64,000 nt of DNA from Dehalococcoidia bacterium (GTDB taxonomy: Bacteria > Chloroflexota > Dehalococcoidia > GIF9 > UBA5629). Shown in pieces: positions 8,172 through 35,693 of the stretch. Below the pieces are notes generated by a model. That model did no database searches. It had not been told where the DNA came from and worked only from the letters and a program-made list of their open reading frames with translations. The translations under genes and the position numbers were made by a program. The first letter of the stretch is position 1. The number at the start of each line of letters is the position of its first letter. The DNA lies in NCBI GenBank assembly GCA_034433775.1, contig DAOUAI010000032.1, positions 206 through 64,205 on the forward strand, read 5' to 3'.

Positions 8172-8209
8172 AACATTAAAGAATAATAGAGAAAAGGAGG
8201 TTTTCAAGA

Positions 8210-18261: not shown

Positions 18262-18348
18262 AATCTTGAATTTATTGTAACACCGACCAGAAAACGAAAC
18301 AAAAGGTCAAACTATAAAACAAAAATATATAGCCCTATTTCCAACTTT

Positions 18349-19529: not shown

Positions 19530-20165
19530 GTGAGTCTTGAGGCAAGCCGAGCCCGGCTATTTGAATCACTGCGCCGAGAGATATCAGATAGACGTGTGCT
19601 TTCGGCGATGGAACGGGTACCACGAGAACTCTTCGTGCCACCGGAATCCTACAACCTCGCTTACGAAGATATACCGCTAAGTATAGGTTACGGACAGACC
19701 ATCTCACAACCATTCATCGTGGCTTTGATGACACAGGCTCTGGGACTGAGAAGCGATGAGAAGGTGCTAGAAATCGGGACGGGGAGCGGTTACCAAACTG
19801 CAATACTCGCTGAATTAGCCAGATGGGTTGTCAGCGTTGAACGCATACCTGAACTTGCAGACTCTGCAAAAACAGTCTTGGATAAGCTTGGCTATAAAAA
19901 CATAGAGATCCATCTAGCAAGCGAAACTTTAGGCTGGCCACAAGGTGCTCCCTATGATGCCATAATAGTTACTGCTGGAGCACCACAAATCCCGCACACA
20001 TTACTCGAACAGTTGGCTAAAAATGGCAGAATGGTCATACCGGTAGGAACAAAATGGGAACAGGACTTATTCAAAGTCAGCAAGAAGGGCAACAAAGTCC
20101 TTGTTGATAACCTGGGTGGCTGCAGATTTGTACCGTTAATCGGCAAGGACGCCTGGGAAGACTGA
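19530..20165 (+). CDS. pcm: protein-L-isoaspartate O-methyltransferase
   Basis: QTISQPFIVA and LEIGTGSGYQTA SAM motifs; 211 aa. Confidence 0.9.
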   Translation: MSLEASRARLFESLRREISDRRVLSAMERVPRELFVPPESYNLAYEDIPLSIGYGQTISQPFIVALMTQALGLRSDEKVLEIGTGSGYQTAILAELARWVVSVERIPELADSAKTVLDKLGYKNIEIHLASETLGWPQGAPYDAIIVTAGAPQIPHTLLEQLAKNGRMVIPVGTKWEQDLFKVSKKGNKVLVDNLGGCRFVPLIGKDAWED

Positions 20166-20176
20166 AGTCCGGTTGC

Positions 20177-20848
20177 TTATATCCCAGCCCTGGGGATAAA
20201 AATGGATGGAATGTTCTCCTTAGGTACCAGAGCACCTACCGGGCACACATCCACACAAGCCAAGCAAGCTTCACACTCAGCCTCTGCTAGCGGCATACCA
20301 GCAAAAGTACTGACAACAGTATCAATACCCCGGAAAGCAAAATCAAGAGTGCCCGCACCTTTTTCGTGACACACCCAGACACATTTACCACAGAGAATGC
20401 ATTTGTTCGGGTCATATATAAATAGTGGATGGCTTGAGTCTACAGGTAGATTTCTGGGTATCTGTTTCAACCTCTTGGGCTTTAGCCTTAACTTCAAGCG
20501 AGCAGCTGTATCCTGAAGCCCGCACTTTCCATTTTTGGCACAGTGAGCGCAATCTAGGTGATGATGACTAATTAGAAATTCGAAAGCAGTGCTCCGTAGT
20601 TTGTTTACCCGAGGGGTATTAAGATGTACTACCATACCATCGCTTACTGGCTCGGTACAAGATGTGACCGGAAACTGCCTGCCTTCAATTTCCACAAAGC
20701 AAAGGCGGCAGGAAGCAAAAGGTGGATTTACTCCCCTGATAGCACAAAGATTGGGAATATAGAATCCGTTATCTAGAGCTACCCAGAGGATCTTTTCGCC
20801 TTTCCTGGCTTTAATCTCAATGCCATCGATAATGCAGTTAACTAACAA
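20177..20848 (-). CDS. HoxU/NuoG-N-terminal-like iron-sulfur protein ([2Fe-2S], His-ligated [4Fe-4S], two [4Fe-4S])
   Basis: CxxxxxxxxxCxxC...C 2Fe-2S pattern, HHLDCAHCAKNGKC, CILCGKCVWVCHE, CEACLACVDVCP. Confidence 0.75.
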   Translation of the reverse strand: MLVNCIIDGIEIKARKGEKILWVALDNGFYIPNLCAIRGVNPPFASCRLCFVEIEGRQFPVTSCTEPVSDGMVVHLNTPRVNKLRSTAFEFLISHHHLDCAHCAKNGKCGLQDTAARLKLRLKPKRLKQIPRNLPVDSSHPLFIYDPNKCILCGKCVWVCHEKGAGTLDFAFRGIDTVVSTFAGMPLAEAECEACLACVDVCPVGALVPKENIPSIFIPRAGI

Positions 20849-20930
20849 ACTGCGGCTCTCCCGGTCTAGAATATGACCCCAAGCTACCTGGTATTCGCAA
20901 CAATCATTACCAAACTAGTGCCTCCAAACC

Positions 20931-21461
20931 TTACCCCTTCTTTCGCCCGTGTTTCAAAAAATTCTCTTCCATAAAATCCACCAGCTCTTCAATTGCTTTT
21001 GGAGAAAAATTTCTAACCCCGCATTCAATCGGTTTCTCCGTCACAACAGCTATCAGGTTTTTCAAATCAAAGGCATTTACCTTATCTGAATCTCTGTAGA
21101 GCTTTATTTTTGGCACCTCGCTTTGCTTGAACCCTTCAGCGAGCAGAATATCATAATCTGCTCCCAGGATTTGTGCCGCCTCACCGAGGGAAAGCTCGTG
21201 CAACACCGGCTTAATCAACACCAGTTGAGTAGAAGAGAGTATCAAAGTCGCCGCACTCCCTGCTTGAATATGCCGCCAGCTATCCTTGTGTGCCTTATCA
21301 AAGGAGGGCTTAGCTAAAGCATGTTTTATGGTCCCCACCTTGTAACCGCGAGACTTCAACTTCACAATAAGTGACTCTATCAGCGTAGTTTTGCCTGATT
21401 TTGATGTGCCCACTATCGCAACAATCGGAGGTGTTCGTTTAACGGCTCTAGCGTTAGACAT
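20931..21461 (-). CDS. mobB: molybdopterin-guanine dinucleotide biosynthesis adapter MobB
   Basis: P-loop IVGTSKSGKTTLIE, 176 aa MobB length. Confidence 0.85.
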   Translation of the reverse strand: MSNARAVKRTPPIVAIVGTSKSGKTTLIESLIVKLKSRGYKVGTIKHALAKPSFDKAHKDSWRHIQAGSAATLILSSTQLVLIKPVLHELSLGEAAQILGADYDILLAEGFKQSEVPKIKLYRDSDKVNAFDLKNLIAVVTEKPIECGVRNFSPKAIEELVDFMEENFLKHGRKKG

Positions 21462-21921
21462 TAGAATAGCCCCAAGGTCGCCTATAAGCCTTCCTCCACG
21501 GTTCTCTTCTCAGGGAGATATAGTCTTTCACTGCTGCCTTGATCGCGCTAACTGCCAACGATGCACAATGGTAATTACCTTCTGGCAGCCCACCCAATGC
21601 CCGAGAAATGTCCTCCTCACAGATTGCCAGCACTTCAGCGATATCCTTGCCTTTGACCAGTTCGGTGGCAACACTTCCGCAAGCGACTGTAGCACCACAA
21701 CCATCTGTCCAGAATGTTACTTCCGCTACCTGTGCCCTGTCTACCTTAATCCACATCTTCATTACTTCACCACACTGGCTACAAACAACTGCAAAACCAT
21801 CAGCATCGCTGAGATCACCTAGATTCCGAGGATTCATCGCGTGGTCAACGACTCTCTCACCATACATCTCCTTCATCCTAGCCGTTATTTGCCTTTCAAG
21901 CTCATCAAATTGGTTGTCCAT
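21454..21921 (-). CDS. NifU/IscU-like Fe-S cluster scaffold protein
   Basis: NPRNLG, DGCGATVACGS and HCASLA Cys motifs typical of the U-type scaffold. Confidence 0.7.
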   Translation of the reverse strand: MDNQFDELERQITARMKEMYGERVVDHAMNPRNLGDLSDADGFAVVCSQCGEVMKMWIKVDRAQVAEVTFWTDGCGATVACGSVATELVKGKDIAEVLAICEEDISRALGGLPEGNYHCASLAVSAIKAAVKDYISLRREPWRKAYRRPWGYSNV

Positions 21922-22252
21922 GCTATCACTCCATCTGCTTTCAATCTATATCCAAGCCGAGCCTTTGTATAAAGTTAGCACCAAAATATCGACTGAACTC
22001 GAATTATAGCATCCTGTCTCACCTTTATCACGCAACATTGCAATCTCTTGAACGAGCGACAACGGCCCCAGCAGCGCTGCTGCAGCTATTTCGTCGCCTC
22101 TTACCCACGAGCCGTGCTAGACACTTCTATTCTCCTATCTGTTCCGGAAATAATCAAGTAACAAGAAAATACAATACCAGGATGACAATAGATGCGTGGT
22201 CTTATGAAAGCACCACTACAAATTGTACGAAAGGCCTGTAGATATAGACCTT

Positions 22253-23716
22253 CTACTTCCTGGAGAGCGTCCTTACTATCTTGCCGCTTCCGTCTCTGAG
22301 GTTCACTTCGAGGGGCATTTTCCCGGGAAGCGTATGTGTGGCACATGCCAGGCATGGGTCGTAAGGCCTGAAAGCCATTTCCACCATGTTTAGCAGTCCC
22401 TCTTTAACCTCAGGACCTTTCACAAACCCCATTGCGGCTTTCTTAACAGAAAGACAAATAGGAGCTGCATTATGCTGCGTAGCTACTATAAGATTGGCTC
22501 TTGTGACCAGCCCTCTATCATCGGTCTCATAATGGTGTATTAAAGTTCCCCTTGCTGCCTCAACACACCCGATACCTATCCTCTTGAGTCTTAAGTTCAT
22601 ATTCCGTATATCCTTGCTGGTTAAAAGAGGTTCATTCGCTATCCGCTGCATGTCCTCAGCAGCCTGAAGCGCTTCTATTAACCGTGCCCAGTGGAAAGCT
22701 AGGGTATGATTGCTGGGCTTGCCCCCTAACGTGTCAAACATCTCCTCATACGCTTTCTGCGCCAGAGGAGTTGCCATACCATCGGCAGCATTCAGCCGGG
22801 CAAGAGGACCAACACGATATAACGATGTCTTATCTCCCTCTATCAATCCATTCCAACCCAATTTTCTAAGGTGAGTCAATCTGATATATGTCCAGGGTTC
22901 AACCCACTCGCCAATGTAATCAACATAGTCCCTGGGGTCGAACAATGCATACTCATTTCCTTTAGTGTCTGTGACTCTAATTTTACCTTCGTAGAAATTC
23001 ACTTTTTTGTCGGCATCCACCAGTCCCATGTTATAGACATTTAGCTTATAAGCATCGTGCAAGATCAGGTCAAGGTATTTCTTTTCGCCAAGCACAGCCT
23101 CTTTGAATAGCTTAAGGGCAAATTGAGCAAACTCCACTGAATCATTTGCCGTGTCTCTAATCCATTTTCTTTCTTCCTCGGTGACACCTCTAGGTACACC
23201 ACCAGGTAACCCGCCTTCAGGATGGGGTGCCTTGCTACCGACAAGGCGAATGATATCGCGGCATCGTTTTCTTATGTCAATTACTTTTTTCCCTATATCT
23301 AACCCCACCCTGCCAATAACGCCGAGTATATTCCTTGCCGCCGGATCAGCATCTGGACCGACAACAAAGTCCGGGGCAGAGAGGAAGAAAAAGTGAATAT
23401 AGTGGTCTTCGAGCATAAACGCATTATAGTGGAGCTGCCTTACCAATTTTGCCGCCGGGGTGGGCTCAACGCTATACACATCGTCCACTGCCTTTGTAGA
23501 TGCCATATTATGGGGTGTAGGACAAACGCCACAAATATTAGGTGTTATCCTTGGCATCTCCTCCACTGGTCTACCAATGCAGAACCTTTCAAAACCTCTT
23601 AGCTCAACCACCTGCCAGTAGGCATCTTCCACGTTACCCTTGTTGTCCAAAAAAATCTCAATTTTACCGTGTCCCTCGAGCCTTGTAATCGGGTTTATAG
23701 TTATATTCTTTGCCAT
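22253..23716 (-). CDS. [NiFe] hydrogenase large subunit, group 3 (MvhA/VhuA-like)
   Basis: N-terminal Ni-binding NICGVCPTPH, C-terminal DPCLACATH followed by a cleavable extension; 487 aa. Confidence 0.9.
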   Translation of the reverse strand: MAKNITINPITRLEGHGKIEIFLDNKGNVEDAYWQVVELRGFERFCIGRPVEEMPRITPNICGVCPTPHNMASTKAVDDVYSVEPTPAAKLVRQLHYNAFMLEDHYIHFFFLSAPDFVVGPDADPAARNILGVIGRVGLDIGKKVIDIRKRCRDIIRLVGSKAPHPEGGLPGGVPRGVTEEERKWIRDTANDSVEFAQFALKLFKEAVLGEKKYLDLILHDAYKLNVYNMGLVDADKKVNFYEGKIRVTDTKGNEYALFDPRDYVDYIGEWVEPWTYIRLTHLRKLGWNGLIEGDKTSLYRVGPLARLNAADGMATPLAQKAYEEMFDTLGGKPSNHTLAFHWARLIEALQAAEDMQRIANEPLLTSKDIRNMNLRLKRIGIGCVEAARGTLIHHYETDDRGLVTRANLIVATQHNAAPICLSVKKAAMGFVKGPEVKEGLLNMVEMAFRPYDPCLACATHTLPGKMPLEVNLRDGSGKIVRTLSRK

Positions 23717-23736
23717 TTCTACTAACTCCTTACTCC

Positions 23737-24702
23737 CTATATTCTTTTGCGCACCAGCGCTGACACCGGCGCCGAGAACCGGTAGAGGTAGCCGGCAAGG
23801 TCGTCTATTTTATCCACAAGCCTCTTTACTTCCTTTTCATCATCAGCATCTAGCATAGAAGCTAATGCAGAGACAAACTTCGTCCCAGCATCTTGTACCC
23901 CTTCCACAGGACCAAAGCAACCCCTGCACGGCAAGTTTATCTTCATGCAGACCTCACCACATCCCGAACGGGTCGCTGGTCCCAGACAAAGTACCCCTTG
24001 CGCAAGAAAACATGTATCCGGGTTAGCTTCCACTTCATGAATACGCTTGACGTCCTTCAACGCAATTCGTGGAGGCTTTGTTTTGTTCCGCTCACAAGTA
24101 TCACAAAGAGCTTTGTGAGGGGCTAAGGTTGAACCTCGCGGTGGCAACTTGCCCGCCAAAACCGCGTTGACCGCACTGGCTATCAGATCAGGTGGTGGTG
24201 GACAACCTGGAAGGTAATAATCAACATCTATAATCTGATTAAGAGCATATACCTGCTCATAAAACTCAGGCAGCGTCAACTCTTTGCCATTTACCTTGGA
24301 TTTGGGCTGAGGGACATTACCTTTTGGGTTCACAACAGTGGGCGCATCACGATAAACCCAGTTAAATATATCCTCTTTAGTAGTAAAATTCGCCATTCCC
24401 GGCGTACCACCAAAACAAGCGCAAGCACCAAAAGCGAGTACTAACTGCGATTTTCGTCTTAAGAGTTCTGCTACCTCTTCATGGTCGGAATTCCTCACAT
24501 GCCCATTGATAATGCTCAAGGCTATTTCTTTGTCCTTCAGCTCCTCAATGTGGTGGTACTTAAAGTCCATAGCCACTGGCCACAGTATGATATCCACAGC
24601 CTCAGCCACCTGCAAAACTGCCTCGTTCAGGTCAACTACAGCCTCGTCACAACCACCACAACTACCCAGCCAACAGATTGCAACCTTCGGTTTATTCGCC
24701 AT
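23737..24702 (-). CDS. [NiFe] hydrogenase small subunit with C-terminal ferredoxin-like extension (MvhG-like)
   Basis: CWLGSCGGCDE proximal cluster, GACACFGG, additional C-terminal Cys clusters; 321 aa. Confidence 0.85.
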   Translation of the reverse strand: MANKPKVAICWLGSCGGCDEAVVDLNEAVLQVAEAVDIILWPVAMDFKYHHIEELKDKEIALSIINGHVRNSDHEEVAELLRRKSQLVLAFGACACFGGTPGMANFTTKEDIFNWVYRDAPTVVNPKGNVPQPKSKVNGKELTLPEFYEQVYALNQIIDVDYYLPGCPPPPDLIASAVNAVLAGKLPPRGSTLAPHKALCDTCERNKTKPPRIALKDVKRIHEVEANPDTCFLAQGVLCLGPATRSGCGEVCMKINLPCRGCFGPVEGVQDAGTKFVSALASMLDADDEKEVKRLVDKIDDLAGYLYRFSAPVSALVRKRI

Positions 24703-24718
24703 CGCTTGTTCTCCTTCC

Positions 24719-25156
24719 TTACCTTTTTGCTTTTGCAGCAGCTAATGCTCGACTCACCGGTTTGATCTTCTTTACCGGTCCCATACTGCGCAAAGTTTCA
24801 GTCATATCTTTAACATGATTAAGTATCTCTTTACCTTCGGGGTCTGAAGAGAGCACTATGCGCACCCGCTCCGTCTCGATACCGTAAGAACTCAGCAACT
24901 TTCTCAATAGATAAACTCTCTTCCGTGCCTCAAAATTACCGTCCTGATAATGGCAGTCCCCCTCAGGACAACCTAAAATAAGAACACCGTCAGCCCCGTT
25001 CTTAAATGCATCTACAATATGGGCGGCATCTATTTTGCCGCTACAAATTATAGGCACCCAGTTCTTTATTTGGGCAGCTAGCTGAGCCTCATCAGCCAAA
25101 TATCCCCAACTAAATTTGCAAGAAAAACAGACTAATTTAGGTTCGAAATTGTTCAC
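24719..25156 (-). CDS. MvhD/FlpD-like [2Fe-2S] hydrogenase delta subunit
   Basis: LVCFSC..., ICSGKIDAAHIVDAFKNGADGVLILGCPEGDCHY pattern; 145 aa. Confidence 0.8.
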   Translation of the reverse strand: MNNFEPKLVCFSCKFSWGYLADEAQLAAQIKNWVPIICSGKIDAAHIVDAFKNGADGVLILGCPEGDCHYQDGNFEARKRVYLLRKLLSSYGIETERVRIVLSSDPEGKEILNHVKDMTETLRSMGPVKKIKPVSRALAAAKAKR

Positions 25157-25183
25157 TTCTCCTCCTTACATCTTAGTTTGTAG

Positions 25184-26977
25184 TTACTGCAACGCCGCAT
25201 AAACTTTATCGATTTTCTCGTAAGTCAGGTCCTCGACCATTTTTCTGGCATCAGAAGGGCAAGCAGCTACACACATGCCACAAGACTTGCATCGGAACAT
25301 ATCAGTGGCAGAGATGATTTTGCCCTCTCTCTCCACAAGATGCGCTGACCCGTAATTACAGGAGTACACACAAATTCCACACCCGCTGCATCTATCCTCA
25401 TCCACCTGGACAGAATAAAGTGACTTCTCAAACCCAATAGATATGCAGGCTTTGCATGATACACAGGGACCACAAGTAGCGCATCTTTTCGCTTCCTCTA
25501 TAGCTTCATCGAGGGTAAGCCCTCTTTCAAACAACTGAAAATGCATCCTCTGCTCAGGCGGTATCCAGACCACCTCAGTTGGCGGCTTATAGTTGGATCT
25601 GAGCGGGATATCGAATTTCTCAAAGTCTCTTCGTCTACCCTCAGTCATATTCAGTCCCCTGAGATACCTGTGGATAGACTCAGCGGCTTCCATCCCTTCT
25701 TTCATCGCCTCAACCATGAACCCTATCCGGCGGACATCACCACCAATAAAGACGTCACGGAATTTAAGACTTTGTAAGGTGTGAGGGTCAACGGCCAGCC
25801 TGCCCCTCTCATCGAGAAGCATCTCATTCTCTAGAACAACCCGGTCAGGCCCCTGCCCTATAGTTATTATAAGAACGTCTCCATCCAGCTCTATCGTGTC
25901 CGATAAGTCAAACTTCGGATTAAATCCCTGCTCATCAAAGACACAGGTACACTTTGGAGACACAATCTTTCTGAACCTGCCTGCTTCACCAATTATCTTC
26001 TGTACACCCCGGGAATATACTATTTGAATTCCCTCTTCCCAGGCTCCCCTTATTTCCTCCTCATCGGCAGGAATACCATCGCGAGAACTTTTATCTTCGC
26101 ACTCCAAACATACCACAGTTACCTCGCCCCCAAGTCTCCTCACCGAGCGCGCAACATCAAACGCCACATTCCCACCACCAATCACAATCACCTTGCGGTA
26201 CTTAAAATAGTCGGGCTCGATATTCCCATGGCTGATCTCGTAAAGCAAAGTATGCCCGTACAACACTCCGGATAGGTCCTGCCCCTCCACTGGTTTACCA
26301 TCGAAGGTCAATATTCTGGGGTAAGGCGTCCCTTTCGCCAAAAATATTGCCTTATACCCCTGCATCCTCAATCTTTCAAAAGTAAGCTTACCTTTACCTA
26401 CCTCAGAATTAAACTTGACATCTATCCCGGCAATCCGTACCAGATTGTCAATGGTAGTCTTTAGCACGTCGTCCGGAAGACGGTAGTCAGGTATAAGCCA
26501 CAAAGCCCCACCCAGCCTGTTTGAAGCTTCAAAAATCGTCGGCTTGTACCCTCTCTTCGCCAGATAGTAGGCACACATCAGACCACCCGGCCCACCCCCC
26601 ACAATCGCCACATTTTCCTTGTCTTTGACTATGTTCAGTTCCTCCCTTTGGTTCAAGTAGTCCGTATAATAGTCTGAGAGGAACCTTTTTAACAGCCTGC
26701 GCCTTATCGCTCCACCTTTGGTCTTATAGTTGCACTCAAGTTCACACAAACCACAAATATAGCCGCAGATGTTGAAAAACGGGTTCTTTTCGTAGAGGTA
26801 ATCACCTATCTGAATTATGCCATTTTTGGCTGACTCGATATCCCTGGGCAAAAGGGAGATAAGCACATTAGTCCGCTGGATATCTTCGTTGATGGGACAT
26901 TTAATCTGACATGGGGGTAACAACTGCTTGACAGCCTCCTCCACATGCGCTCCACCAGTGGTTACTGTACGCCACAT
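25184..26977 (-). CDS. GltD/HdrA-like FAD- and NAD(P)H-binding flavoprotein with N-terminal [4Fe-4S] and C-terminal 2x[4Fe-4S] ferredoxin domain
   Basis: CGYICGLCELEC, VAIVGGGPGGLMCAYYLAKRGY dinucleotide fold, second VIVIGGGNVAFD fold, C-terminal CATCGPCVSCKAC...CSGCGICVYSC...CKSCGMCVAACP. Confidence 0.75.
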   Translation of the reverse strand: MWRTVTTGGAHVEEAVKQLLPPCQIKCPINEDIQRTNVLISLLPRDIESAKNGIIQIGDYLYEKNPFFNICGYICGLCELECNYKTKGGAIRRRLLKRFLSDYYTDYLNQREELNIVKDKENVAIVGGGPGGLMCAYYLAKRGYKPTIFEASNRLGGALWLIPDYRLPDDVLKTTIDNLVRIAGIDVKFNSEVGKGKLTFERLRMQGYKAIFLAKGTPYPRILTFDGKPVEGQDLSGVLYGHTLLYEISHGNIEPDYFKYRKVIVIGGGNVAFDVARSVRRLGGEVTVVCLECEDKSSRDGIPADEEEIRGAWEEGIQIVYSRGVQKIIGEAGRFRKIVSPKCTCVFDEQGFNPKFDLSDTIELDGDVLIITIGQGPDRVVLENEMLLDERGRLAVDPHTLQSLKFRDVFIGGDVRRIGFMVEAMKEGMEAAESIHRYLRGLNMTEGRRRDFEKFDIPLRSNYKPPTEVVWIPPEQRMHFQLFERGLTLDEAIEEAKRCATCGPCVSCKACISIGFEKSLYSVQVDEDRCSGCGICVYSCNYGSAHLVEREGKIISATDMFRCKSCGMCVAACPSDARKMVEDLTYEKIDKVYAALQ

Positions 26978-27034
26978 AATTTACCTCCTTTAACTGCACG
27001 CTGATGCCTGCCAGAAAATCAGCAAAGCCAAAAT

Positions 27035-27063
27035 ATAATACAAAATTACTTACTGTTGTGCAA
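27035..27063 (-). promoter_or_regulatory. sigma70-like promoter for hydrogenase operon B
   Basis: On the minus strand TTGCAC (27063-27058), 17-nt spacer, TATTAT (27040-27035); RBS AAGGAGG immediately upstream of the 26977 start. Confidence 0.4.
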
Positions 27064-27090
27064 GATGCCCATTGTTAAAAGTTGGAGCGC

Positions 27091-27140
27091 TTAAAAAGTA
27101 ACCCCGTCTCTTATCGAGACAAAGTCCTCAGGGGGACTAA
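27091..27140 (-). terminator. putative intrinsic terminator of hydrogenase operon A
   Basis: Minus-strand hairpins AGTCC-CCCTGA-GGACT and GTCTC-GATAA-GAGAC followed by GGGGTTACTTTTT, just after the hoxH-like stop. Confidence 0.4.
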
Positions 27141-27151
27141 CAGAGACAATC

Positions 27152-28615
27152 TCAGTTCGTCAGCTCTCCCAAAAGTTCGCCCTTCTGTGAGATAAGCTGC
27201 ACTCTGAACGGCATCTGGCCTAGAACGTGTGTGGAGCAAGAGAGACAGGGATCGTAACAGCGGATCGCCACTTCTACCCGGTTGAGGATACCCTCAGTGA
27301 CCTTGCCATTTTTTATGAACTCCTTAGCCACCTCATACACCGCACGGTTCATTGCCCAGTTGTTGTTACCTGTGGCCACAATAAGATTAACCTTCAGGAT
27401 CTTACCAGTATCATCCACCCAGTAATGATGAAACAAAGTGCCCCTGGGAGCTTCGATAACTCCCACACCTTGCTCGTTATATTTTCCGGACTCTACAATC
27501 AAATCTGTAGAACAAATATCCTTATCTTCCAGCAATTGCTGAGCTCTTTCCAAAGAATAAAGTAATTCGATGAGACGTGCATAATGGTAGTAGAGCGAAC
27601 CTTCCACTATGCCATTCTTACCCAAGCTTTTAAAATTTTTGAGCTCTGATTGGGCCCTATAAGTTGATATCGCCCCACAGACATTCAAACGAGCCAGAGG
27701 ACCAGCCCTGTAGACTCCCTTCGGATAACCTTGCTTTTTATAAAAGGGGAACTTGAGATATGACCAGTCTTCCACATACTCATTGATGATATTCAGGTAG
27801 TTAGCAGGATCGAACTGGTCTTCAAGAACCTTACCTTCAGCATCAATTAGCCTCAATTTGCCATCATAAAGTTCGAGATTATTGTCTTTGTCCACCAATC
27901 CCAGATATCCTGTAGGAAAGCTTGCACATGTACAGACAAAATCTTTGTTGCGCTCATAAAATTGCTTTATTATCCCAATAGCAGCCTCAGCATCAGCTAT
28001 CATCTGGTCAATTTGTCTGAGAAAACGGTCGCGGTCAGATGGTGATAACGCTGTGTTCATGCCCCCGGGCACTGCACCATTAGGATGAACCTTTTTCCCG
28101 CCGATGGCTTGAATAATTGCCTGCCCGAAACCACGAAGCCTCACACCTTTGATAGCAAGCTCGGGGTTCGTCTCAATCAACCCCACCACATTCCGCTTCG
28201 CTGGCTCATAGTCCAGCCCCAGAAGTAAATCTGGACTAGCCAGATGGAAAAAGTGGAGAGCATGCGACTGGATAAATTGTCCCATATGCATTAGCTCTCG
28301 AAGTAACTTTGCCGGTCGGGTCAGTTCAACACCAAGAATTGCATCGCAAGCTTTGGCAGAGGCTAAATGATGGCTCACCGGGCAGATACCACAAATTCGC
28401 GGAGTGATCACAGGCATCTCCCAGAACACTCTGCCCTCGCAGAACTTCTCAAAGCCACGGAATTGAGTCACATGAAATCGAGCATCCAGAACATTCCCGT
28501 TATCATCAAGTTGAATGGTCACCTTACCGTGACCCTCAAGCCTGGTGACCGGGTTTATCTCAATTGTTTTACGATTTTCAGGAATTTCCTTGGTCTTCTT
28601 AACTTCAGTCGCCAT
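27152..28615 (-). CDS. [NiFe] hydrogenase large subunit, group 3 (HoxH-like)
   Basis: [12 protein letters not shown]-terminal Ni site, [10 protein letters not shown]-terminal site; 487 aa. Confidence 0.9.
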
Positions 28616-28627
28616 TCTGCACCTCTT

Positions 28628-29164
28628 TTAATCAAAGCGCATCATTTCACTGGGCAACACAGGTATCCGCCCCTCCAATAGTTCCTTTAAAGCGTAGAGA
28701 ATTGCCTTGGCATCTGGAGGACAACCTGGCACATAGCAGTCCACCTTTACCACGTGGTTCACCGGCTTCACCTGCTCCAGCAACGCTGGTACCCCGGGTG
28801 GACGAGGTATTTTCCCATCACAGGTGCTCTCAGTCTCAATATAGGCACGCCTTAGCACCTCATCTTTGTCAAATGTACTGCGCATTCCACAGACTCCACC
28901 AAAACAAGCGCAATCACCCCAAGCCATCAAAATCTTACAGTTAGCCCTGAGTTCTTTCAAAACCTCTTCTTCCTCCGTATTTCCTACCGAACCTTCCACT
29001 ATACCTACGTCCACTGGCGAGAACTCCTTGATATCGGTGATCGGGCTCCTAGTAAACTCAACCGCATTAAGTAATTCCACTATCGCCTCATCTATATCTA
29101 GAAATGACATATGACATCCGGAACAAGCTTCCAGCCAAACAGTAGCTACCTTCACTTTCGCCAT
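28628..29164 (-). CDS. [NiFe] hydrogenase small subunit, short group-3 type (HoxY-like)
   Basis: WLEACSGCHMS, GDCACFGG, VPGCPP; 178 aa with proximal cluster only. Confidence 0.85.
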   Translation of the reverse strand: MAKVKVATVWLEACSGCHMSFLDIDEAIVELLNAVEFTRSPITDIKEFSPVDVGIVEGSVGNTEEEEVLKELRANCKILMAWGDCACFGGVCGMRSTFDKDEVLRRAYIETESTCDGKIPRPPGVPALLEQVKPVNHVVKVDCYVPGCPPDAKAILYALKELLEGRIPVLPSEMMRFD

Positions 29165-29189
29165 AGAAACAACTCCCTCTATTTAGTGA

Positions 29190-31184
29190 TTACCTGCTGA
29201 GCCGCCTGTCGACCTCGCTGATGAGTTCCCAGTCAGCACGAATTCCTTCCGGTGGCCTGACAAGCCGCGTGGTATGTTTAGTTAGGCCATCGATGGTAGT
29301 ATAAGTCCCGCTGACCTCTGTCCAGAGTGGTGACGGCAATACCACGTCTGCTTCGGAGACAACACCAGACATAAAGCTTGCCTGTGCCACGAGGAATTCA
29401 ATACCGCTAGGACGAGCTGCCAATCCAGGCAACTCGGAGCAATCTTCACCTAAGAGTAAGTACAAAGCCTTTATGGAACCGTCTTTGAGTAACTTTGCCA
29501 AACTGAACTCACCACTATTGACCACCTCCGTATTCCAGAGCCCAACGCTATTTCCTCCCGGCTTTAACCACAGCGTCTTCAATGTCCGTCCCCCGTCTCC
29601 AAATAAGCTCGCTAGGCCAAAAAGCAATGCTACCAATCCCGGCTTCTCTTGCTGCAAAAACCCCTGCCCATAGATAACAACACAGCGCTTTGCCTTAGCT
29701 ACCATAGAAGCAGCACTCTTCAGTCCTTCATAATCAAGACCTGCGCGCTCACAAACATCTGCTGGCTTAATGTCCGAAAGCGAAGCAGCAAACTTTTTGT
29801 TCCTGGCCGGGTTGCCGATCACACCTTCGTCAATAATTATTCTAGACAAAGCTTTAATGGCTAACTCTTCCTTACCTTTGTCCGGACACAACCACAACAC
29901 CGCTTGATAAGGAAAACTGTTTCTCACAGCGTCGAAAACAATGAGATTCGCCCCATTTCGCCTGACTGCACGGACAATGAGGGAACCAATCACAGGATGG
30001 GTCTCCAGAGGATCAGCGCCAGCCACAAACAGGCAATCGGCCTCCAATAGTTCCTCGACTGAGCGGAGTTCGAGGTCTTTTAACTCCTTTTTACCATCTG
30101 ATGCTTGCAATGCCTGCCCGACAACCCTGAAATAATCCCCATCCAGGCTATCAAGTCGCTTACTTCCTAGAGAGCCCGTTATAAACTCCTTGAAAGCCCT
30201 GGCAGACTCGTTAGATAATTGGCTCGAAATCAACCCAGCAATACTATTAGCGCCGTGACGTGTCTTCATATCCCGTAACTTGGTAGACACAATCTCTATA
30301 GCCTCCGCCAAGGAACAAGGCTCTAGCTTACCGTTGCTCCGCTTTAGCGGGGTCAGAATGCGTTTGGCAGTTACCTGCGAGAAAGAAAAACGCCCTTTCC
30401 TGCACAGCAGACCACGCGGTTTGGAAAGGTCAGGGCTGTCAATTTTCACTACCCTGTTGTCTTTGATAAATGCCTTAATCTCACAGCCGACACCGCATAT
30501 CGGACAAACACTTGTCACCTGCTCACATTCTGAACTCCTGCCCTTATAAGCGCTGGACTTTGAGAAAATAGCACCGGTGGGACAAACCTGGAAACAAGCC
30601 CCGCAAGAAATGCATGAGGACTCCCCAAGTGGTTGACCCAGGTCAGCCACCACCCTGTCCCGCCAGCCACGGTAACCAAAGTCCAGAATATGGATACCAG
30701 CAAATTCGTCACACGCCCGTATGCAGCGTCCACAAAGAACACATCGGTTATGGTCAACAACCAGATATTTGTTCACCGAGTCCACGGGCAATGATGGCCA
30801 GGAAAGGGGATATCGTAAGTTGTCCATCTGATAGCGATAAGCGAGTGCCTGTAATTCACATTCTCCACTAGCTACACATTGTGCACATAGATGGTTTTTC
30901 TCGGTAAACATCAACTCGAGGATGAGACGACGATATTTCTCCAGTTTTTCAGTATGTGTCTGCACTACCAAACCATCCCGTGCAGGATAAGTACAGGCCG
31001 GCATCACTCGCCTTTCTCCTTCTATTTCCACCAGACAGAGCCTGCAAGCAGCCACATCGCTCAGCCCATCGTAATGACACAGCGTTGGAAGGTCGATATT
31101 ATTCGCCTTGCAAACCTCAAGGATAGTATCACCTTCTTTCCCTTTGACCTGTTTCCCGTTGATGGTTAAAGTAATCTCGTTCAT
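29190..31184 (-). CDS. NuoG/HoxU/FdhA-like subunit: N-terminal 2Fe-2S plus 4Fe-4S domains followed by a partial molybdopterin-oxidoreductase-like domain
   Basis: CxxxxxxxxxxCxxC 2Fe-2S, HLCAQCVASGEC, CVLCGRCIRACDE, CISCGACFQVCP, MopB-type CPICGVGCEI plus RILTPLKR; 664 aa. Confidence 0.8.
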   Translation of the reverse strand: MNEITLTINGKQVKGKEGDTILEVCKANNIDLPTLCHYDGLSDVAACRLCLVEIEGERRVMPACTYPARDGLVVQTHTEKLEKYRRLILELMFTEKNHLCAQCVASGECELQALAYRYQMDNLRYPLSWPSLPVDSVNKYLVVDHNRCVLCGRCIRACDEFAGIHILDFGYRGWRDRVVADLGQPLGESSCISCGACFQVCPTGAIFSKSSAYKGRSSECEQVTSVCPICGVGCEIKAFIKDNRVVKIDSPDLSKPRGLLCRKGRFSFSQVTAKRILTPLKRSNGKLEPCSLAEAIEIVSTKLRDMKTRHGANSIAGLISSQLSNESARAFKEFITGSLGSKRLDSLDGDYFRVVGQALQASDGKKELKDLELRSVEELLEADCLFVAGADPLETHPVIGSLIVRAVRRNGANLIVFDAVRNSFPYQAVLWLCPDKGKEELAIKALSRIIIDEGVIGNPARNKKFAASLSDIKPADVCERAGLDYEGLKSAASMVAKAKRCVVIYGQGFLQQEKPGLVALLFGLASLFGDGGRTLKTLWLKPGGNSVGLWNTEVVNSGEFSLAKLLKDGSIKALYLLLGEDCSELPGLAARPSGIEFLVAQASFMSGVVSEADVVLPSPLWTEVSGTYTTIDGLTKHTTRLVRPPEGIRADWELISEVDRRLSR

Positions 31185-31186
31185 CC

Positions 31187-34100
31187 TTATTCTCCTACCT
31201 CAAGGTCGCATCTCAGGCACCTTTTAGCTTCCCTTCTGGCTTCTTCTTCTGTAAGAGGCAGTTCTATCTCTTCAAAGCTCTGCCGCCTTTTCTCTACGGG
31301 AAGCGTTGGTGCCTCTCGCCGGGGTTGTTCTTTCCATATTTCTTTAGCCACATCAATAGGCAACTCTTCAGCAATCTCAACTTTACGTTTAAGCTCGTGC
31401 AACTCCACTCTAGATGTATCTCCCCTGAGATACTTGTCTATAGCTATAGCCGCCCTCCTCCCGTCAGCAATAGCATATATTACCATGTCAGGACCCCTGA
31501 CAAAGTCACCGCCAGCGAAAATGCCAGGGACATTAGTAGCTAAAGTGTTGGAGTCGATTCGAAGTCGATCCCACTCTGTTCTTTCCAGGCGGCTATCCGG
31601 GGGCAAGAAAGAGAGGTCTGGCGCTTGCCCCACAGCAGCAATTACTGCGTCTGCCTCCACCACGAAATCAGAGCCCGGGATAGGTGCTGGCCTGCGTCTA
31701 CCGCTTGCATCGATATCTCCCAACTCCATGCGAACGCACCGCAAACCTGTGACCTTCCAGTTCTCACTCAAAATCCGCACTGGGTTGACTAAGAAGTTCA
31801 TCTTAACCCCCTCAGCCACTGCCCCCTCATATTCCACCTCGGACACTGGCATCTCCTCTCGAGTGCGGCGGTAATAGATGTTCACCTCTTCTGCCCCGAG
31901 TCTTAGCGCAGCACGTGCTGAATCTATAGCCACATTACCGCCACCGATAACAGCTACTCTCCGCTCGATCTTCGTCTGCCTACCAATTTTGACATCACGC
32001 AAAAAAGTGAGGCCATAATAAAGACCGGTCAGTCCCTCCACCTCGCCAGGAATCCCTATCCGCTGGCTTTTTTGTGCTCCTGCGGCGATAAAAACCGCAT
32101 CGTAGCCACTTTGCAGAAGGTGCCTCACACGGAAATTCTCGTTTATCGGTGTGCTATACCTGATCTCCACCCCCCGCTTTGCAATGTACTCGATTTCCTG
32201 TTCGATAACTTTACGCGGTAAGCGGAACTCCGGGATGGCTACAGCAAGCATCCCACCACCCACTGGAAGCGCTTCAAACACCGTCACACCATATCCCATC
32301 TGCGCCAAGAAATAGGCACAGCTAAGACCTGTTGGACCAGCCCCGACCACAGCCACCTTCTGAGGCTTAGTCCTGGGAAAAGGCTGAGGTGGGGGCACTT
32401 TATCGAGATTATCAAAATACCAATCGGCAGCAAATCGCTTGAGTGCCCGAATAGCCATAGGTTCATCAATATCTTTTCGCCGGCACTTGTATTCGCATGG
32501 ATGATGGCAGATTCGCCCACATATTGCTGGGAATGGGTTGCGTTCTCTGATAGTCTCCACCGCCTCCAAATACTCCCCGGCAGCAATATGAGCAATATAT
32601 TTCGGGATATTAATGCCCACCGGGCAAGTATGCTGACAAGGTGACGGAAATAACGCCTGACATACTGCAGCCGGGCACCGCTTGTCCATGATATGGGCTT
32701 CGTACTCCTCCCTGAAATGTCGCACAGTAGTCAGCACAGGATTAGGCGAAGTCTGCCCGAGTCCACAAAGTGAGCAGGAGCTTACCATCTCAGCAAGTTC
32801 TTCGATGGTGCTCAAGTCTTCCATCGTTCCCTCGCCGTTCGTTATCTTGGTCAGTAATTCTAGCATCTTAGGTATCCCTGCCCGACAGGGAGTGCACTTA
32901 CCGCACGACTCGTCTCTGGTGAACTGGAGGAAAAACTTAGCCACATCAACCATACAGCTATCTTCGTCCATTACCACCAGACCTCCAGACCCCATAATCG
33001 CGCCGAGACTGGTGATAGACTCATAGTCTACAGGTGTGTTAATATGCTGAGTAGGAATAACACCACCAGAAGGCCCCCCCATCTGCACCGCCTTAAATCT
33101 CTTGCCTTCTGGTATGCCACCGCCGATATCAAAGATTATTCTTCCCAACCTCGTCCCCAGAGGGACTTCAACCAGCCCGGTGTTGTTTATTTTTCCTACT
33201 AGACAAAGTACCTTCGTGCCCTTACTTCTTTCCGTACCCACAGCTGAAAACCAGTCTGCTCCCTTCCAGATGATTTGCGGCACGTTTGACCAGGTCTCTA
33301 CATTATTAATAGTGGTCGGCTTACCAAAAAGTCCTTTGTTCGCAGGAAACGGCGGACGCTGCCGTGGGTTGCCACGCCTACCCTCAATAGATATTAAAAG
33401 TGCTGTTTCTTCACCACAGACAAAAGCCCCCGCCCCAGGGAAAATATCAAGGTCAAATTCAAATCCTGTGCCCAGTATATTTTTCCCCAGTAACCCATGT
33501 TCTCGGGCCTGCTCAATAGCATGTCGTAACGTTTCAATAGCTAAAGGATACTCAGCTCGTATATAGGCATACCCTTGGCGCACATTACCGATAGCGTAAG
33601 CACCTATTGTCATTCCCTCGATTATGGAGTGCGGATTGCCCTCCAAAACGGCACGGTTCATATACGCCCCGGGGTCACCTTCGTCGCCGTTACATACCAC
33701 AAATTTCTCATCCCCAGGCGCGTTGCGAACAAACCCCCACTTAGTAGCTGCAGGGAATCCAGCACCACCACGCCCCCTTAAACCGGACTTCCGAACCTCA
33801 TCCAGGACTTCATCAGGGGACATTTGCGTTAATACCTTAGCCAACGCCTGGTAGCCATCCCTGGCAATATATTCCTCGATATCCATCGGGTCAATATCCT
33901 GATTATGCATTATCCTTATCTCTTGAAATCCAAAAGGGGGAGACTCAGTATCCAGCACCCATTCTGCTACCGGTGTCCCTTTGATAAGATGCTGGTCAAC
34001 AATGCGCTGCACTTTATCCTCAGAGAGGTCAGCGTAGATAAATCTCCTCTTATTTCCAGGCTCAATAACAGTAATTACAGGTTCACGCCCGCATAGTCCA

Positions 34101-34315
34101 ATGCAGCTTGCCTTTAACACAACTACATCAGACAACTTCCGAGATGCTATCTCGCGCTCGAGAGCCGCCAGTATCCGGTTTGCCCCTGAGGATATACCAC
34201 ATGTACCTAGATGCACTCTGACCTGTATCTTCTTTTCCCGCTCTGCAACTTTAGCCTGAGCCTGTTCCTTCCAGCTTGAAAGCTCTTTCACTGACGCAAG
34301 TGGCTTTACAATCAT
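31187..34315 (-). CDS. fusion of NuoF/HoxF-like NADH-binding FMN/[4Fe-4S] subunit (with N-terminal thioredoxin-like 2Fe-2S domain) and a C-terminal GltD-like NAD(P)H:FAD oxidoreductase
   Basis: GRGGAGFPAATKWGF and ESCGKCTPCR (NuoF core); extra clusters CSLCGLG, CPAAVCQALFPSPCQHTCP, CGRICHHPCEYKC; VAVVGAGPTGLSCAYFLAQMGY plus VAVIGGGNVAIDSAR dinucleotide folds; 1042 aa. Confidence 0.8.
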   Translation of the reverse strand: MIVKPLASVKELSSWKEQAQAKVAEREKKIQVRVHLGTCGISSGANRILAALEREIASRKLSDVVVLKASCIGLCGREPVITVIEPGNKRRFIYADLSEDKVQRIVDQHLIKGTPVAEWVLDTESPPFGFQEIRIMHNQDIDPMDIEEYIARDGYQALAKVLTQMSPDEVLDEVRKSGLRGRGGAGFPAATKWGFVRNAPGDEKFVVCNGDEGDPGAYMNRAVLEGNPHSIIEGMTIGAYAIGNVRQGYAYIRAEYPLAIETLRHAIEQAREHGLLGKNILGTGFEFDLDIFPGAGAFVCGEETALLISIEGRRGNPRQRPPFPANKGLFGKPTTINNVETWSNVPQIIWKGADWFSAVGTERSKGTKVLCLVGKINNTGLVEVPLGTRLGRIIFDIGGGIPEGKRFKAVQMGGPSGGVIPTQHINTPVDYESITSLGAIMGSGGLVVMDEDSCMVDVAKFFLQFTRDESCGKCTPCRAGIPKMLELLTKITNGEGTMEDLSTIEELAEMVSSCSLCGLGQTSPNPVLTTVRHFREEYEAHIMDKRCPAAVCQALFPSPCQHTCPVGINIPKYIAHIAAGEYLEAVETIRERNPFPAICGRICHHPCEYKCRRKDIDEPMAIRALKRFAADWYFDNLDKVPPPQPFPRTKPQKVAVVGAGPTGLSCAYFLAQMGYGVTVFEALPVGGGMLAVAIPEFRLPRKVIEQEIEYIAKRGVEIRYSTPINENFRVRHLLQSGYDAVFIAAGAQKSQRIGIPGEVEGLTGLYYGLTFLRDVKIGRQTKIERRVAVIGGGNVAIDSARAALRLGAEEVNIYYRRTREEMPVSEVEYEGAVAEGVKMNFLVNPVRILSENWKVTGLRCVRMELGDIDASGRRRPAPIPGSDFVVEADAVIAAVGQAPDLSFLPPDSRLERTEWDRLRIDSNTLATNVPGIFAGGDFVRGPDMVIYAIADGRRAAIAIDKYLRGDTSRVELHELKRKVEIAEELPIDVAKEIWKEQPRREAPTLPVEKRRQSFEEIELPLTEEEARREAKRCLRCDLEVGE

Positions 34316-34332
34316 CTTGTCCCCCTAATCAC

Positions 34333-34872
34333 CTAACTATAGGAATCTAGGATTTCTTTTAATTTGCTTGGCTTCACTTTTCTATGCACATCATGCCCAA
34401 TGGCTATCACCGGCGACAAACCACAGCAACCGAGACATCTGACCGTTTCCAATGAAAACTTACCATCAGGGGTAATACCCTTGGGCTCCAGACCATAGTC
34501 CTTCTTTAATGCCTTCAAAATCCTCTCGGACCCCTTAACATAGCAACTCGTCCCCGTACAGACTTGAATAACATGTTTACCCTTTGGCACAAGAGAGAAA
34601 AAGTGGTAAAAACTGACTATACCATAGACCTCACTCAAGGGCACTTTCATCTCAGCCGAGACCACTCGTAACACTTCAGGCGGTAAATAACCTACAATCC
34701 CCTGCACCTGCTGCAATACCCGTATTATAGCCCCCGCCTTCCCAGCATTTTCATCTACCACCTTAAGTATCCGCTGCAAAACCTCTCGGTTAATACCCTC
34801 CGCTGTTTTTGTTGCCGTAGCAGTACCTGTTTGCTGCACAGTTGCCCCCTTTGATATTTGAGTATGATTCAA
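34333..34872 (-). CDS. NuoE/HoxE-like thioredoxin-fold [2Fe-2S] subunit
   Basis: VCTGTSCYVKG...CLGCCGLSP 2Fe-2S ligand pattern of the 24-kDa subunit family. Confidence 0.85.
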   Translation of the reverse strand: MNHTQISKGATVQQTGTATATKTAEGINREVLQRILKVVDENAGKAGAIIRVLQQVQGIVGYLPPEVLRVVSAEMKVPLSEVYGIVSFYHFFSLVPKGKHVIQVCTGTSCYVKGSERILKALKKDYGLEPKGITPDGKFSLETVRCLGCCGLSPVIAIGHDVHRKVKPSKLKEILDSYS

Positions 34873-35240
34873 ACTTCCTGCAAGATTATGTCATATTAGC
34901 ACTCAAGCCAGTAACCGCAAAACCTCTCCTTATAAAGTATCCCTGAACTAACACATTGCTTACATCGTACTTTTTGCCTAGATTCAAACCGGACTTTCAG
35001 CCACAGCCAAACATATTGCCACCTGTAACTGTGCCATGGCTCGTACACTGTACATTTTATCATATACAAGCATCTTATAAAGGTAAAAGATGTCCTGCCC
35101 TCAAAAGCACAACGCAACCCGTTAGTTTTAACTGAGGCAAATTGACCATAGCAATACTGATGGATTAAACAGCAATAGAACAACCAAAGCCCTTGAGGGA
35201 AAACGCATTAAAACATCGAGAACAAAAAGATAGAACACAG

Positions 35241-35313
35241 TAGGCCGTGCAGGAATCGAACCTGCGACACCCTGATTAAAAGTCAGGTGCTCTACCGACT
35301 GAGCTAACGGCCC
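35241..35313 (-). tRNA. tRNA-Lys(TTT)
   Basis: Hand-folded: acceptor GGGCCGT, anticodon loop CTTTTAA, T-loop TTCGATT; no encoded CCA. Confidence 0.85.
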
Positions 35314-35396: not shown

Positions 35397-35693
35397 CTAT
35401 TTACTAGGCTCTTCTCCGGACTCCTCTGCGGAAAGAATAGTATGGATATACTGCGCCAGAGCCGGGTGTATATCACAGATGAAACCATCCCGGGTCGCTT
35501 CTACCGAGAAGGTCAACCTCCCAGGCTTTCGTGGTGAGTTATCGAACTTGTGCAACCCGGAATCGTCCCACGGCATCTCTTTGCCCAACACCTCCAGCAT
35601 GCCTCTTACATCGCGAGGCTGTTGAAGTACCACCTCGAAGCGTAATTGCTTAGCTAAAAGGTTAAGTTGGTCCGTTCTTAATTTTATCCTCAT
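35397..35693 (-). CDS. hypothetical protein (98 aa)
   Basis: ORF co-oriented with flanking minus-strand genes; a plus-strand 88-aa ORF overlaps it; no family recognised. Confidence 0.35.
   Translation of the reverse strand: MRIKLRTDQLNLLAKQLRFEVVLQQPRDVRGMLEVLGKEMPWDDSGLHKFDNSPRKPGRLTFSVEATRDGFICDIHPALAQYIHTILSAEESGEEPSK

Follow-up and report, generated by a model that had tools for sequence, protein, structure and literature searches.

In the solved enzymes of the Bfu type, the low-potential exit is the domain at the C-terminus of HydB/BfuB that carries the clusters B3 and B4, and electrons travel from the flavin mononucleotide (FMN) to the mobile [2Fe-2S] cluster of HydC and from there to B3/B4. 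The docking place of ferredoxin in Tsib NfnABC is between the HydC domain and BfuB's ferredoxin-like domain. The cofactor content of BfuBC was stated to be absolutely conserved in a survey of the Bfu family (PMC9304861). The domain query of that survey required the C-terminal ferredoxin domain (IPR017896) and metagenomic data were excluded, so a variant carrying GltD could not have been caught. How electrons are split in Bfu enzymes and what defines the low-potential exit are still debated, and a natural swap of the ferredoxin domain would be a direct test. Here we describe such a variant in a stretch of 64,000 nucleotides (64 kb, hereafter the window) from a Dehalococcoidia bacterium (GCA_034433775.1, contig DAOUAI010000032.1, positions 206 to 64,205). 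Positions 20177-34872 of the window hold 12 intact co-directional genes on the minus strand, each with Pfam and NCBIfam family support. They comprise operon A (34872-27152), operon B (26977-22253) and a short tail of further genes. An earlier sequence-only reading had claimed that this DNA encodes two complete group-3 [NiFe] hydrogenases of the cytoplasmic type, wired to different flavin or pyridine-nucleotide modules, and the family matches and motifs bear this out; the genes it described were found in place as intact minus-strand open reading frames (ORFs) with strong family matches. By its sequence, operon A is a variant of the Bfu-type NiFe hydrogenase in which the ferredoxin domain has been swapped for GltD, and the family to which it belongs is widespread and essentially uncharacterised.

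Operon A has the gene order C-B-A-S-L. Its product matches a HydABCSL/Bfu-type enzyme, all five predicted subunits being homologous to the electron-bifurcating NiFe-HydABCSL of Acetomicrobium mobile (A. mobile); the 7T2R chains were the top solved matches for subunits A, B and L, and subunits C and S were assigned with Pfam and NCBIfam. HydC/BfuC (34333-34872) is a NuoE/HoxE-like, thioredoxin-like [2Fe-2S] subunit (PF01257, 4.7e-49; best NCBIfam match HoxE), the start of which possibly lies 11 codons downstream, giving 168 amino acids (aa), the length called in relatives. The HydB/BfuB-GltD fusion (31187-34315; 1042 aa) carries the domains Complex1_51K, NADH_4Fe-4S, Fer4_20 and Pyr_redox_2. 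HydA/BfuA (29190-31184; 664 aa) is a long NuoG-like conduit subunit with the Pfam domains Fer2_4, NADH-G_4Fe-4S_3, Molybdop_Fe4S4 and Molybdopterin, and its predicted content is one [2Fe-2S] cluster, several [4Fe-4S] clusters and a molybdopterin-like domain. Its residues 1-650 aligned to residues 1-650 of 7T2R_A (2.7e-116), and no Pyr_redox domain was found in it by Pfam. HydS (28628-29164; 178 aa; PF01058, 3.3e-30) is a short [NiFe] small subunit with cysteines sufficient for the proximal cluster only. The large subunit HydL (27152-28615; 487 aa) is 59% identical to 7T2R_D (8.4e-184) and scored 615 bits against this chain, compared with 464 bits against 5XF9_D of the group 3d Hox enzyme and 390-424 bits against group 3c Mvh. 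It holds the N-terminal CxxC and the C-terminal DPCLSCSTH nickel-iron ligand motifs, followed by a 24-aa extension. The large subunits of both operons keep the N-terminal CxxC and the C-terminal DPCxxCxxH with a cleavable-looking extension behind it. The H-cluster domain Fe_hyd_lg_C was not found in the cluster by Pfam, and the small subunit is a free 178-aa protein.

Two other assignments were considered and rejected. Operon A had been read through Hox-type markers, but a plain group 3d Hox enzyme does not fit, given the 664-aa HydA in place of a short HoxU of about 240 aa and the Bfu features of HydB; the HydABCSL/Bfu type with its long HydA takes its place. Group 3b was rejected for either enzyme, since the large subunits scored 88-113 bits against sulfhydrogenase large subunits and more than 340 bits against 3c, 3d and Bfu references. 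The idea that GltD-like subunits mark group 3b fails here as well: no sulfhydrogenase chain matched the GltD-like proteins, though those entries were present in the searched structure library. A tree of the large subunits, proposed as a check along with the sequence-only reading, was built in a simple form (neighbour-joining, midpoint rooted, without bootstrap support). In it, the window HydL groups with relatives from Dehalococcoidia in a branch sister to A. mobile HydL, within a broader clade that also holds the 3d reference, and the large subunit of operon B falls on the group 3c side.

The exchange lies in HydB. Residues 32-556 form the NuoF/HydB core (7T2R_B, 1.5e-209), with the N-terminal thioredoxin-like domain, the FMN/NADH site, cluster B1 and the B2-site ligands. 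Residues 558-1042 (about 485 residues) form a GltD/NfnL module with two [4Fe-4S] clusters (Fer4_20), the flavin adenine dinucleotide (FAD) motif GxGxxG, GGGNxA and YRR, and a terminal CxxC. The best solved matches of residues 558-1037 were the GltD inserts of NfnA and StnA (9BOV_A, 9N5U_A, 8OH5_C) and NfnL. The alignment with A. mobile HydB ends at residue 556, which corresponds to A. mobile position 540 of 597, and no linker separates the two parts, the first cluster cysteine of GltD (C560) standing 8 residues past the B2-site ligand C552. No ferredoxin-type domain (B3/B4) was found at the HydB C-terminus by Pfam, the only such match being Fer4_20 of the GltD type. By these alignments, the ferredoxin-branch domain is exchanged for a complete NADP(H)-type flavoprotein module.

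The fusion is strongly conserved. L-numbers (L001-L087) label the related loci compared with the window, and 83 fusions from many phyla were aligned. The junction is without gaps in them; the B1 ligands, AYM and the FAD motif are invariant in 83/83, the GGPSG and the F of the GAGAF loop are likewise kept in 83/83, and the B2-site ligands, GGGNxA, YRR and the terminal CxxC are kept in 82-83 of the 83. Conservation of this kind points to a single ancient fusion maintained by purifying selection, the NADPH site included. The B2-site ligands C454, H541, C547 and C552 correspond to A. mobile C438, H525, C531 and C536, and whether they hold a [2Fe-2S] cluster or zinc is indistinguishable from sequence. 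A. mobile Cys476 is a Thr in the window HydB, and according to Feng et al. other Bfu enzymes likewise have Thr at this position. Feng et al. also reported that the N-terminal domain and the B2-site ligands are absent from non-bifurcating homologues.

The NuoF-GltD fusion is neither rare nor unique to the window, being widespread among phyla of bacteria and archaea, with full-length copies in at least 80 species-level genomes. In the database, the best 120 clusters were all of about 1030 aa and at least 63% identical, mostly from metagenome-assembled genomes of Dehalococcoidia or Chloroflexota, and their database names were only "FAD-dependent oxidoreductase" or "NuoF". A scan with the fusion of one genome per species gave 598 related stretches. 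The best 80 were inspected, and all were fusions over most or all of the query, nearly all of full length. These 80 came from Dehalococcoidia, Aminicenantes, Bacteroidota, Acidobacteriota, Zixibacteria, Planctomycetota, Desulfobacterota, Spirochaetota, Asgard archaea, Theionarchaea, Thermoplasmatales and others. After clustering at 50% identity, about 15 of the top 150 representatives were full-length fusions, indicating that the family is phylogenetically broad with modest sequence diversity.

The partners of the fusion were compared in a census of 85 loci with a full-length fusion. A long HydA with NiFe small and large subunits, as in the window, was found at 12 loci, all of Dehalococcoidia, and HoxU with NiFe small and large subunits at 11; in Acidobacteriota and some other phyla the fusion occurs in sets of HoxE, HoxF-GltD, HoxU, S and L. 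An [FeFe] HydA was the partner at 13 of the 85, an HdrA/MvhD-like protein at 4, and at 16 the partner was unresolved or the contig truncated. The fusion tree tracks the partner type, and the Dehalococcoidia clade with long HydA is monophyletic. The commonest context in bacteria and archaea (29/85) was a NuoE and NuoF-GltD pair, then a HoxU-like protein of about 230 aa and a GltB-like protein of about 527 aa (PF01645, the glutamate-synthase FMN domain). It was seen at L014-L017, L021, L026, L028, L033, L036, L037, L040, L041, L045-L048, L051, L053-L055, L057, L058, L064, L069, L077 and L081. From its domains, this NuoE/NuoF-GltD/HoxU/PF01645 cluster may encode a glutamate-synthase-like enzyme coupled to the Bfu core. 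Three further loci showed particular arrangements. L002 (9534-13244; CP070810.1, a 1.03-Mb Dehalococcoidia genome) has NuoE and the fusion intact, followed by a 48-aa Fer2_4 fragment and unrelated genes; its hydrogenase part seems to have been lost or decayed. At L034 (3805-16198, Balneolales), a fusion-type NiFe cluster is followed in tandem by a second set of NuoE, NuoF, HoxU, S and L, and at L023 (9541-15902) the fusion is followed in tandem by a second NuoE and a 616-aa NuoF.

Operon B was predicted to encode an MvhADG-like hydrogenase on the group 3c side. Its first gene (25184-26977) encodes an NfnL/GltD-like FeS-FAD flavoprotein of 597 aa (5JCA_L, 6.2e-51; supported by Pfam and NCBIfam), and its second (24719-25156) an MvhD-like [2Fe-2S] subunit (PF02662, 2e-31; VhuD and HdrA2 C-terminal matches). 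The MvhG-like small subunit (23737-24702; 321 aa; PF01058) matched the VhuG model over its full length and has cysteines for three clusters. The MvhA-like [NiFe] large subunit (22253-23716; 487 aa) holds the motifs NICGVCPTPH and DPCLACATH, with a 26-aa extension behind them. Its scores against A. mobile HydL and against the Mvh/Vhu references were similar, and that against Hox was lower. The solved relatives of the flavoprotein are NfnL (5JCA_L), NfnA, StnA, DPD and GltD. No HdrA chain matched it at E<=1e-15 in the search of solved structures, so that the earlier label "GltD/HdrA-like" holds for GltD/NfnL and fails for HdrA. HdrA identity was rejected, the HdrA models matching only the generic FAD loop and the ferredoxin motif, and neither HdrB nor HdrC was found among the window ORFs scanned. 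In 15 homologues, the GltD N-terminal cluster cysteines, the FAD motifs, a C-terminal domain with two [4Fe-4S] clusters and an extra CxxCxxCxxCxxC are invariant. These cysteines suffice for four or five clusters, more than the three [4Fe-4S] sites first counted. A conserved CLECEDK replaces the YRR NADPH signature, which leaves the nucleotide preference of this flavoprotein, or any nucleotide binding, open. Conservation of the family within Dehalococcoidia is high, with at least 74% identity in the best 120 clusters. An exact-sequence look-up placed the operon B flavoprotein only on a 2.7-kb Logan contig, and one with the operon A fusion gave no entry.

The hydrogenase of operon B would pass electrons to the NfnL/GltD-like flavoprotein in place of HdrABC, and its simplest role would be that of an H2:NAD(P)+ or H2:ferredoxin oxidoreductase. 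A cytoplasmic Vhu-type enzyme has been reported as conserved in Dehalococcoides and Dehalogenimonas, and by comparison operon B is probably the counterpart of this "Vhu" hydrogenase. In a 1.75-Mb genome (L086), operon B is a free-standing four-gene unit. About 7 kb from it, L086 1-2686 (minus strand) encodes a classical set of NuoE, a 636-aa NuoF with a C-terminal ferredoxin domain and a NuoG-like protein; this set is a Bfu-type core without the fusion, in an organism of the same class.

Given the domain swap, we were particularly interested in what operon A might couple. We lean, with some reserve, towards two independent hydrogenases in the window, of which operon A would couple H2 to both NAD(H) and NADP(H), the latter replacing, or sharing the place of, ferredoxin as the second partner. 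By homology, H2 would be split at the NiFe site and the electrons would pass through HydS and the FeS chain of HydA to B1 and on to the FMN of HydB, the NAD(H) site. From the FMN they may leave through the HydC cluster, and perhaps also through the B2 site, to the two GltD clusters, the FAD and NADP+. The net reaction would then be 2 H2 + NAD+ + NADP+ <-> NADH + NADPH + 2 H+. Cellular potentials are about -280 mV for NAD and about -380 mV for NADP, compared with -414 mV for H2 at 1 bar (PMC9304861). In our Nernst calculation, NADH alone could produce H2 up to about 3 Pa, and NADH together with NADPH (mean -330 mV) up to about 150 Pa. With these figures, NADPH could pull the oxidation of NADH as reduced ferredoxin does in HydABC. 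The sequence-only reading had proposed coupling to several carriers in a bifurcating or confurcating arrangement across both enzymes. For operon A this survives in part: its family has a proven bifurcating member and the NADPH-type module is conserved, so coupling to NADH and NADPH is a reasonable reading. The joining of the two enzymes is not supported, A and B being separable units.

Several points weigh against this coupling of operon A, and some of them bear on other explanations. The role of the GltD module in the fusion family is predicted from its sequence, and zinc, rather than a cluster, occupies sites B2 and B5 of one archaeal NfnABC, so the conservation of the B2-site ligands is no proof of an electron path into GltD. 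Because a GltB-like neighbour stands at so many of the census loci, the GltD clusters may mainly be an adaptor to a partner protein. Neither hyp genes nor a maturation protease were among the scanned ORFs of the window. In the guess of Greening et al., the acceptor bound by the glutamate-synthase domain is a low-potential one, "likely ferredoxin", and not NADP (PMC11216029). That guess favours an enzyme with four substrates, in which the GltD clusters replace B3/B4 and still dock ferredoxin and the FAD adds an NADP(H) site. Such an enzyme would be a bifurcating hydrogenase and an Nfn-like transhydrogenase in one, with H2, NAD(H), NADP(H) and ferredoxin all connected. In NfnSL, the homologous large-subunit clusters lead to ferredoxin, and the Bfu core features of HydB are intact. 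However, Tsib NfnABC docks ferredoxin at the C-terminal domain of HydC and the ferredoxin-like domain of BfuB, the latter fold being absent here, and no ferredoxin gene is found in the cluster besides the HoxU-like protein. We regard this four-way linkage as a possibility worth keeping in view, with a chance well short of even. In all 83 fusions, AYM stands in place of the AFM that marks bifurcating HydB, and this is what would be expected if NAD+ at the FMN or NADP+ at the FAD were reduced independently, without energetic coupling. Non-bifurcating Hox, Fdh and complex I share the NuoEFG core, and HydL lies in a clade that also includes the 3d reference, consistent with the same idea. On the other hand, HydB keeps the N-terminal domain and the B2-site ligands that non-bifurcating homologues lack, and the point where GltD joins HydB is precisely the low-potential exit; in NfnABC/Stn, it sits on the HydA chain instead. 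Uncoupled reduction of the two cofactors therefore seems to us quite improbable. The preferred reading, coupling of H2 to NAD(H) and NADP(H), can also be taken further, with the HydB-GltD fusion as a ferredoxin-independent class of Bfu enzymes in which NADP(H) is the low-potential partner of the FMN/FeS bifurcation site. This broader proposal we think doubtful. If it were true, operon A would encode an H2:NAD+/NADP+ bifurcating (or NADH + NADPH confurcating) hydrogenase, and in many phyla [FeFe] hydrogenases and GltB-like enzymes would run on the same core.

The sequence-only reading had treated operons A and B as one "supercluster", and it might be supposed that they build one supercomplex or an obligate functional pair, for example by sharing a pyridine-nucleotide or ferredoxin pool through contact. 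The tandem layout, with the NifU, MobB and HoxU genes and the same flanking genes, recurs in L003, L012, L084 and L085; L084 and L085 (GCA_034432055.1 and a JGI contig) are the closest long relatives. In the more distant L009, operon B adjoins operon A divergently. Adjacency in two arrangements is a hint of a functional link and speaks against full independence. Moreover, the HoxU-like gene, which directly follows operon A in L010 and L011, sits past operon B in the window. However, operon A occurs without operon B within 6-10 kb in L001, L007, L010 and L011, operon B stands by itself, as a complete unit of four genes, in L086 and L087, and the large subunits of A and B are 39% identical and belong to different clades. 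A terminator-like hairpin with a T-run lies at 27100-27126 (minus strand), just 3′ of the large-subunit gene of operon A. Its folding energy of -14.8 kcal/mol corresponds to a modest z-score of -1.9, a further point against a clean separation; relatives have a stem of different sequence at the equivalent position, and the evidence for a terminator is weak to moderate. Upstream of operon B, a promoter-like site at 27035-27062 (minus strand), called from consensus match and conservation, contains a -10-like TATTATAT box, TATTAT(AT). This box and an AGGAGGT ribosome-binding site are conserved in relatives. Because A and B are separable in relatives and have the hairpin, the -10-like box and the ribosome-binding site between them, the "supercluster" is mainly a juxtaposition and not one machine, and a supercomplex or obligate pair appears very unlikely. 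A and B are probably two enzymes in a loose, lineage-specific genomic association that are transcribed separately.

The main value of the locus lies in the domain swap as a natural experiment on the choice of the low-potential partner, and less in the "supercluster". If coupling persists with NADP(H), the bifurcation site needs no ferredoxin, and anaerobes would have a ferredoxin-free way of balancing NADH, NADPH and H2; should ferredoxin still bind, the variant would show the binding place. The annotation of cytoplasmic hydrogenases in the abundant subsurface Dehalococcoidia needs revising, and the assignment made here sets right what is probably a mistaken reading of these loci as plain group 3d or 3b enzymes.

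Behind operon B, three tail genes complete the cluster. A NifU_N/IscU-like Fe-S scaffold gene (21454-21921; PF01592, 1.1e-32), with a promoter-like site carrying an extended -10 upstream at 22031-22003, overlaps by 8 nt with a gene for a MobB-family P-loop protein (20931-21461; PF03205, 1.4e-37). The NifU-MobB pair lies 3′ of operon B in L003, L012 and L084, and NifU lies 3′ of operon A in L009. These two proteins are likely Fe-S assembly or maturation helpers. The last gene (20177-20848) encodes a stand-alone HoxU-like subunit of 223 aa with Pfam support and with [2Fe-2S] and three [4Fe-4S] motifs. It is a paralogue of HydA's N-terminal part, with 37% identity to HydA residues 4-211, and is similar to the short BfuA/HoxU found with the fusion in other phyla. 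It probably serves the HydBC-GltD core as an alternative, short BfuA. In L010 and L011 the HoxU-like gene comes immediately 3′ of the large-subunit gene of operon A, and in L009 it lies 3′ of NifU, so operon B and NifU-MobB were apparently inserted between operon A and the HoxU-like gene in the window clade.

The surroundings of the cluster were also inspected. Small ORFs at 22101-22355 (84 aa, overlapping the 3′ end of the operon B large-subunit gene), 34896-35183 (95 aa, just upstream of operon A) and 35397-35693 had no match in the Pfam scan and were not counted as cluster genes. Fourteen genes had been claimed originally; 12 with family support were found, and the remaining ORFs are these small ones. 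A tRNA gene (35241-35313, minus strand) lies just upstream of operon A. About 1 kb past the HoxU-like end of the cluster stands a tyrosine recombinase gene with XerC/D-like integrase domains (18097-19248, plus strand), and a PCMT methyltransferase gene (19530-20165) lies between it and the HoxU-like gene. The same flanking genes recur in L084 and L085, so there is no sign of recent mobility of the cluster. An Rfam scan found tRNAs only, and a riboswitch or leader is therefore absent from the intergenic regions. A DUF169 gene lies at 40196-40912 (minus strand), about 5 kb upstream of operon A, and in L001 a DUF169 gene (7496-8248) directly follows the operon A large-subunit gene, a possible recurring neighbour. 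The rest of the window is ordinary chromosomal core, with priA, trmD, ftsA, ftsZ, ribonucleotide reductase, uvrC, ribosomal proteins, rpoC and ruvB. The EF-Tu gene at 46605-47802 (minus strand) is broken up into two ORFs that overlap and lie in different frames: 47068-47802 with the GTP-binding domain and 46605-47096 with domains 2 and 3. This apparent frameshift is either a sequencing or assembly error or a pseudogene.

Keyword searches of the literature found one mention only of the fusion, in archaeal hybrid hydrogenases (Greening et al., Cell 2024, PMC11216029), and no mention in Losey 2020. The sequence-only reading had not recognised the locus as a described canonical operon type, and this agrees with the literature, in which no description of the exact type was found. 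Among group 3d enzymes, Hox (HoxEFUYH, 5XF9) shares with operon A the NuoE/F/U-type diaphorase, the short small subunit and a HydL 47% identical and of the same broad clade. Unlike Hox, the window has the long HydA in place of a HoxU of about 240 aa, and its HydB has the extra Bfu features and the GltD module. Operon B resembles the group 3c MvhADG-HdrABC systems (5ODC, 9SFI, 9SW2) in its MvhA-like, three-cluster MvhG-like and MvhD-like subunits; unlike them, it has no HdrA, HdrB or HdrC, and the partner is the NfnL/GltD-like flavoprotein. In D. mccartyi, the GenPept accessions of vhuG, vhuA and a maturation protease are consecutive, whereas operon B has no protease gene after the large-subunit gene. 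An analogous GltD insert at the ferredoxin-reducing site of a bifurcating enzyme is found in type III HdrA, where the host protein is HdrA and not HydB. For that protein it was proposed that GltD swaps ferredoxin for NAD(P)H, and it is found next to mvhADG in Bathyarchaeota.

Three further systems are close to operon A. The archaeal hybrid [FeFe]/[NiFe] complexes (group F, PMC11216029) have a HydB with a "glutamate synthase domain", modelled on 7MFM chain I, and place HydB-GltD alongside HydC, a NuoG-like conduit subunit and a group 3 [NiFe] large subunit, as in the window. They are defined by a fusion of HydA (H-cluster) to HyhS, whereas no H-cluster domain was found in the cluster described here, whose operon A has a short small subunit of the ordinary kind. 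NfnABC and StnABC (9BOV, 9N5U, 8OH5) likewise combine a BfuBC core with a GltD/NfnL-type NADP(H) module, and residues 31-557 of the window HydB align with NfnB and StnB at E ~1e-200. In NfnABC/Stn, however, GltD is inserted in subunit A, where it feeds the mid-potential chain, and BfuB retains B3/B4 for ferredoxin; in the window, GltD stands at the BfuB C-terminus in place of B3/B4, and the NiFe module occupies the mid-potential chain. With A. mobile NiFe-HydABCSL (7T2R/7T30; PMC8880783), operon A shares five homologous subunits, HydA, HydB and HydL over nearly their full length, and also the long HydA, the single-cluster HydS and, in HydB, the N-terminal domain, B1, the B2-site ligands, GGPSG and F. 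The differences are the host, Dehalococcoidia instead of Synergistetes, AYM for AFM, Thr for Cys476, and a HydB that carries a GltD/NfnL module of about 485 residues where the A. mobile subunit has its ferredoxin-like domain with B3/B4.

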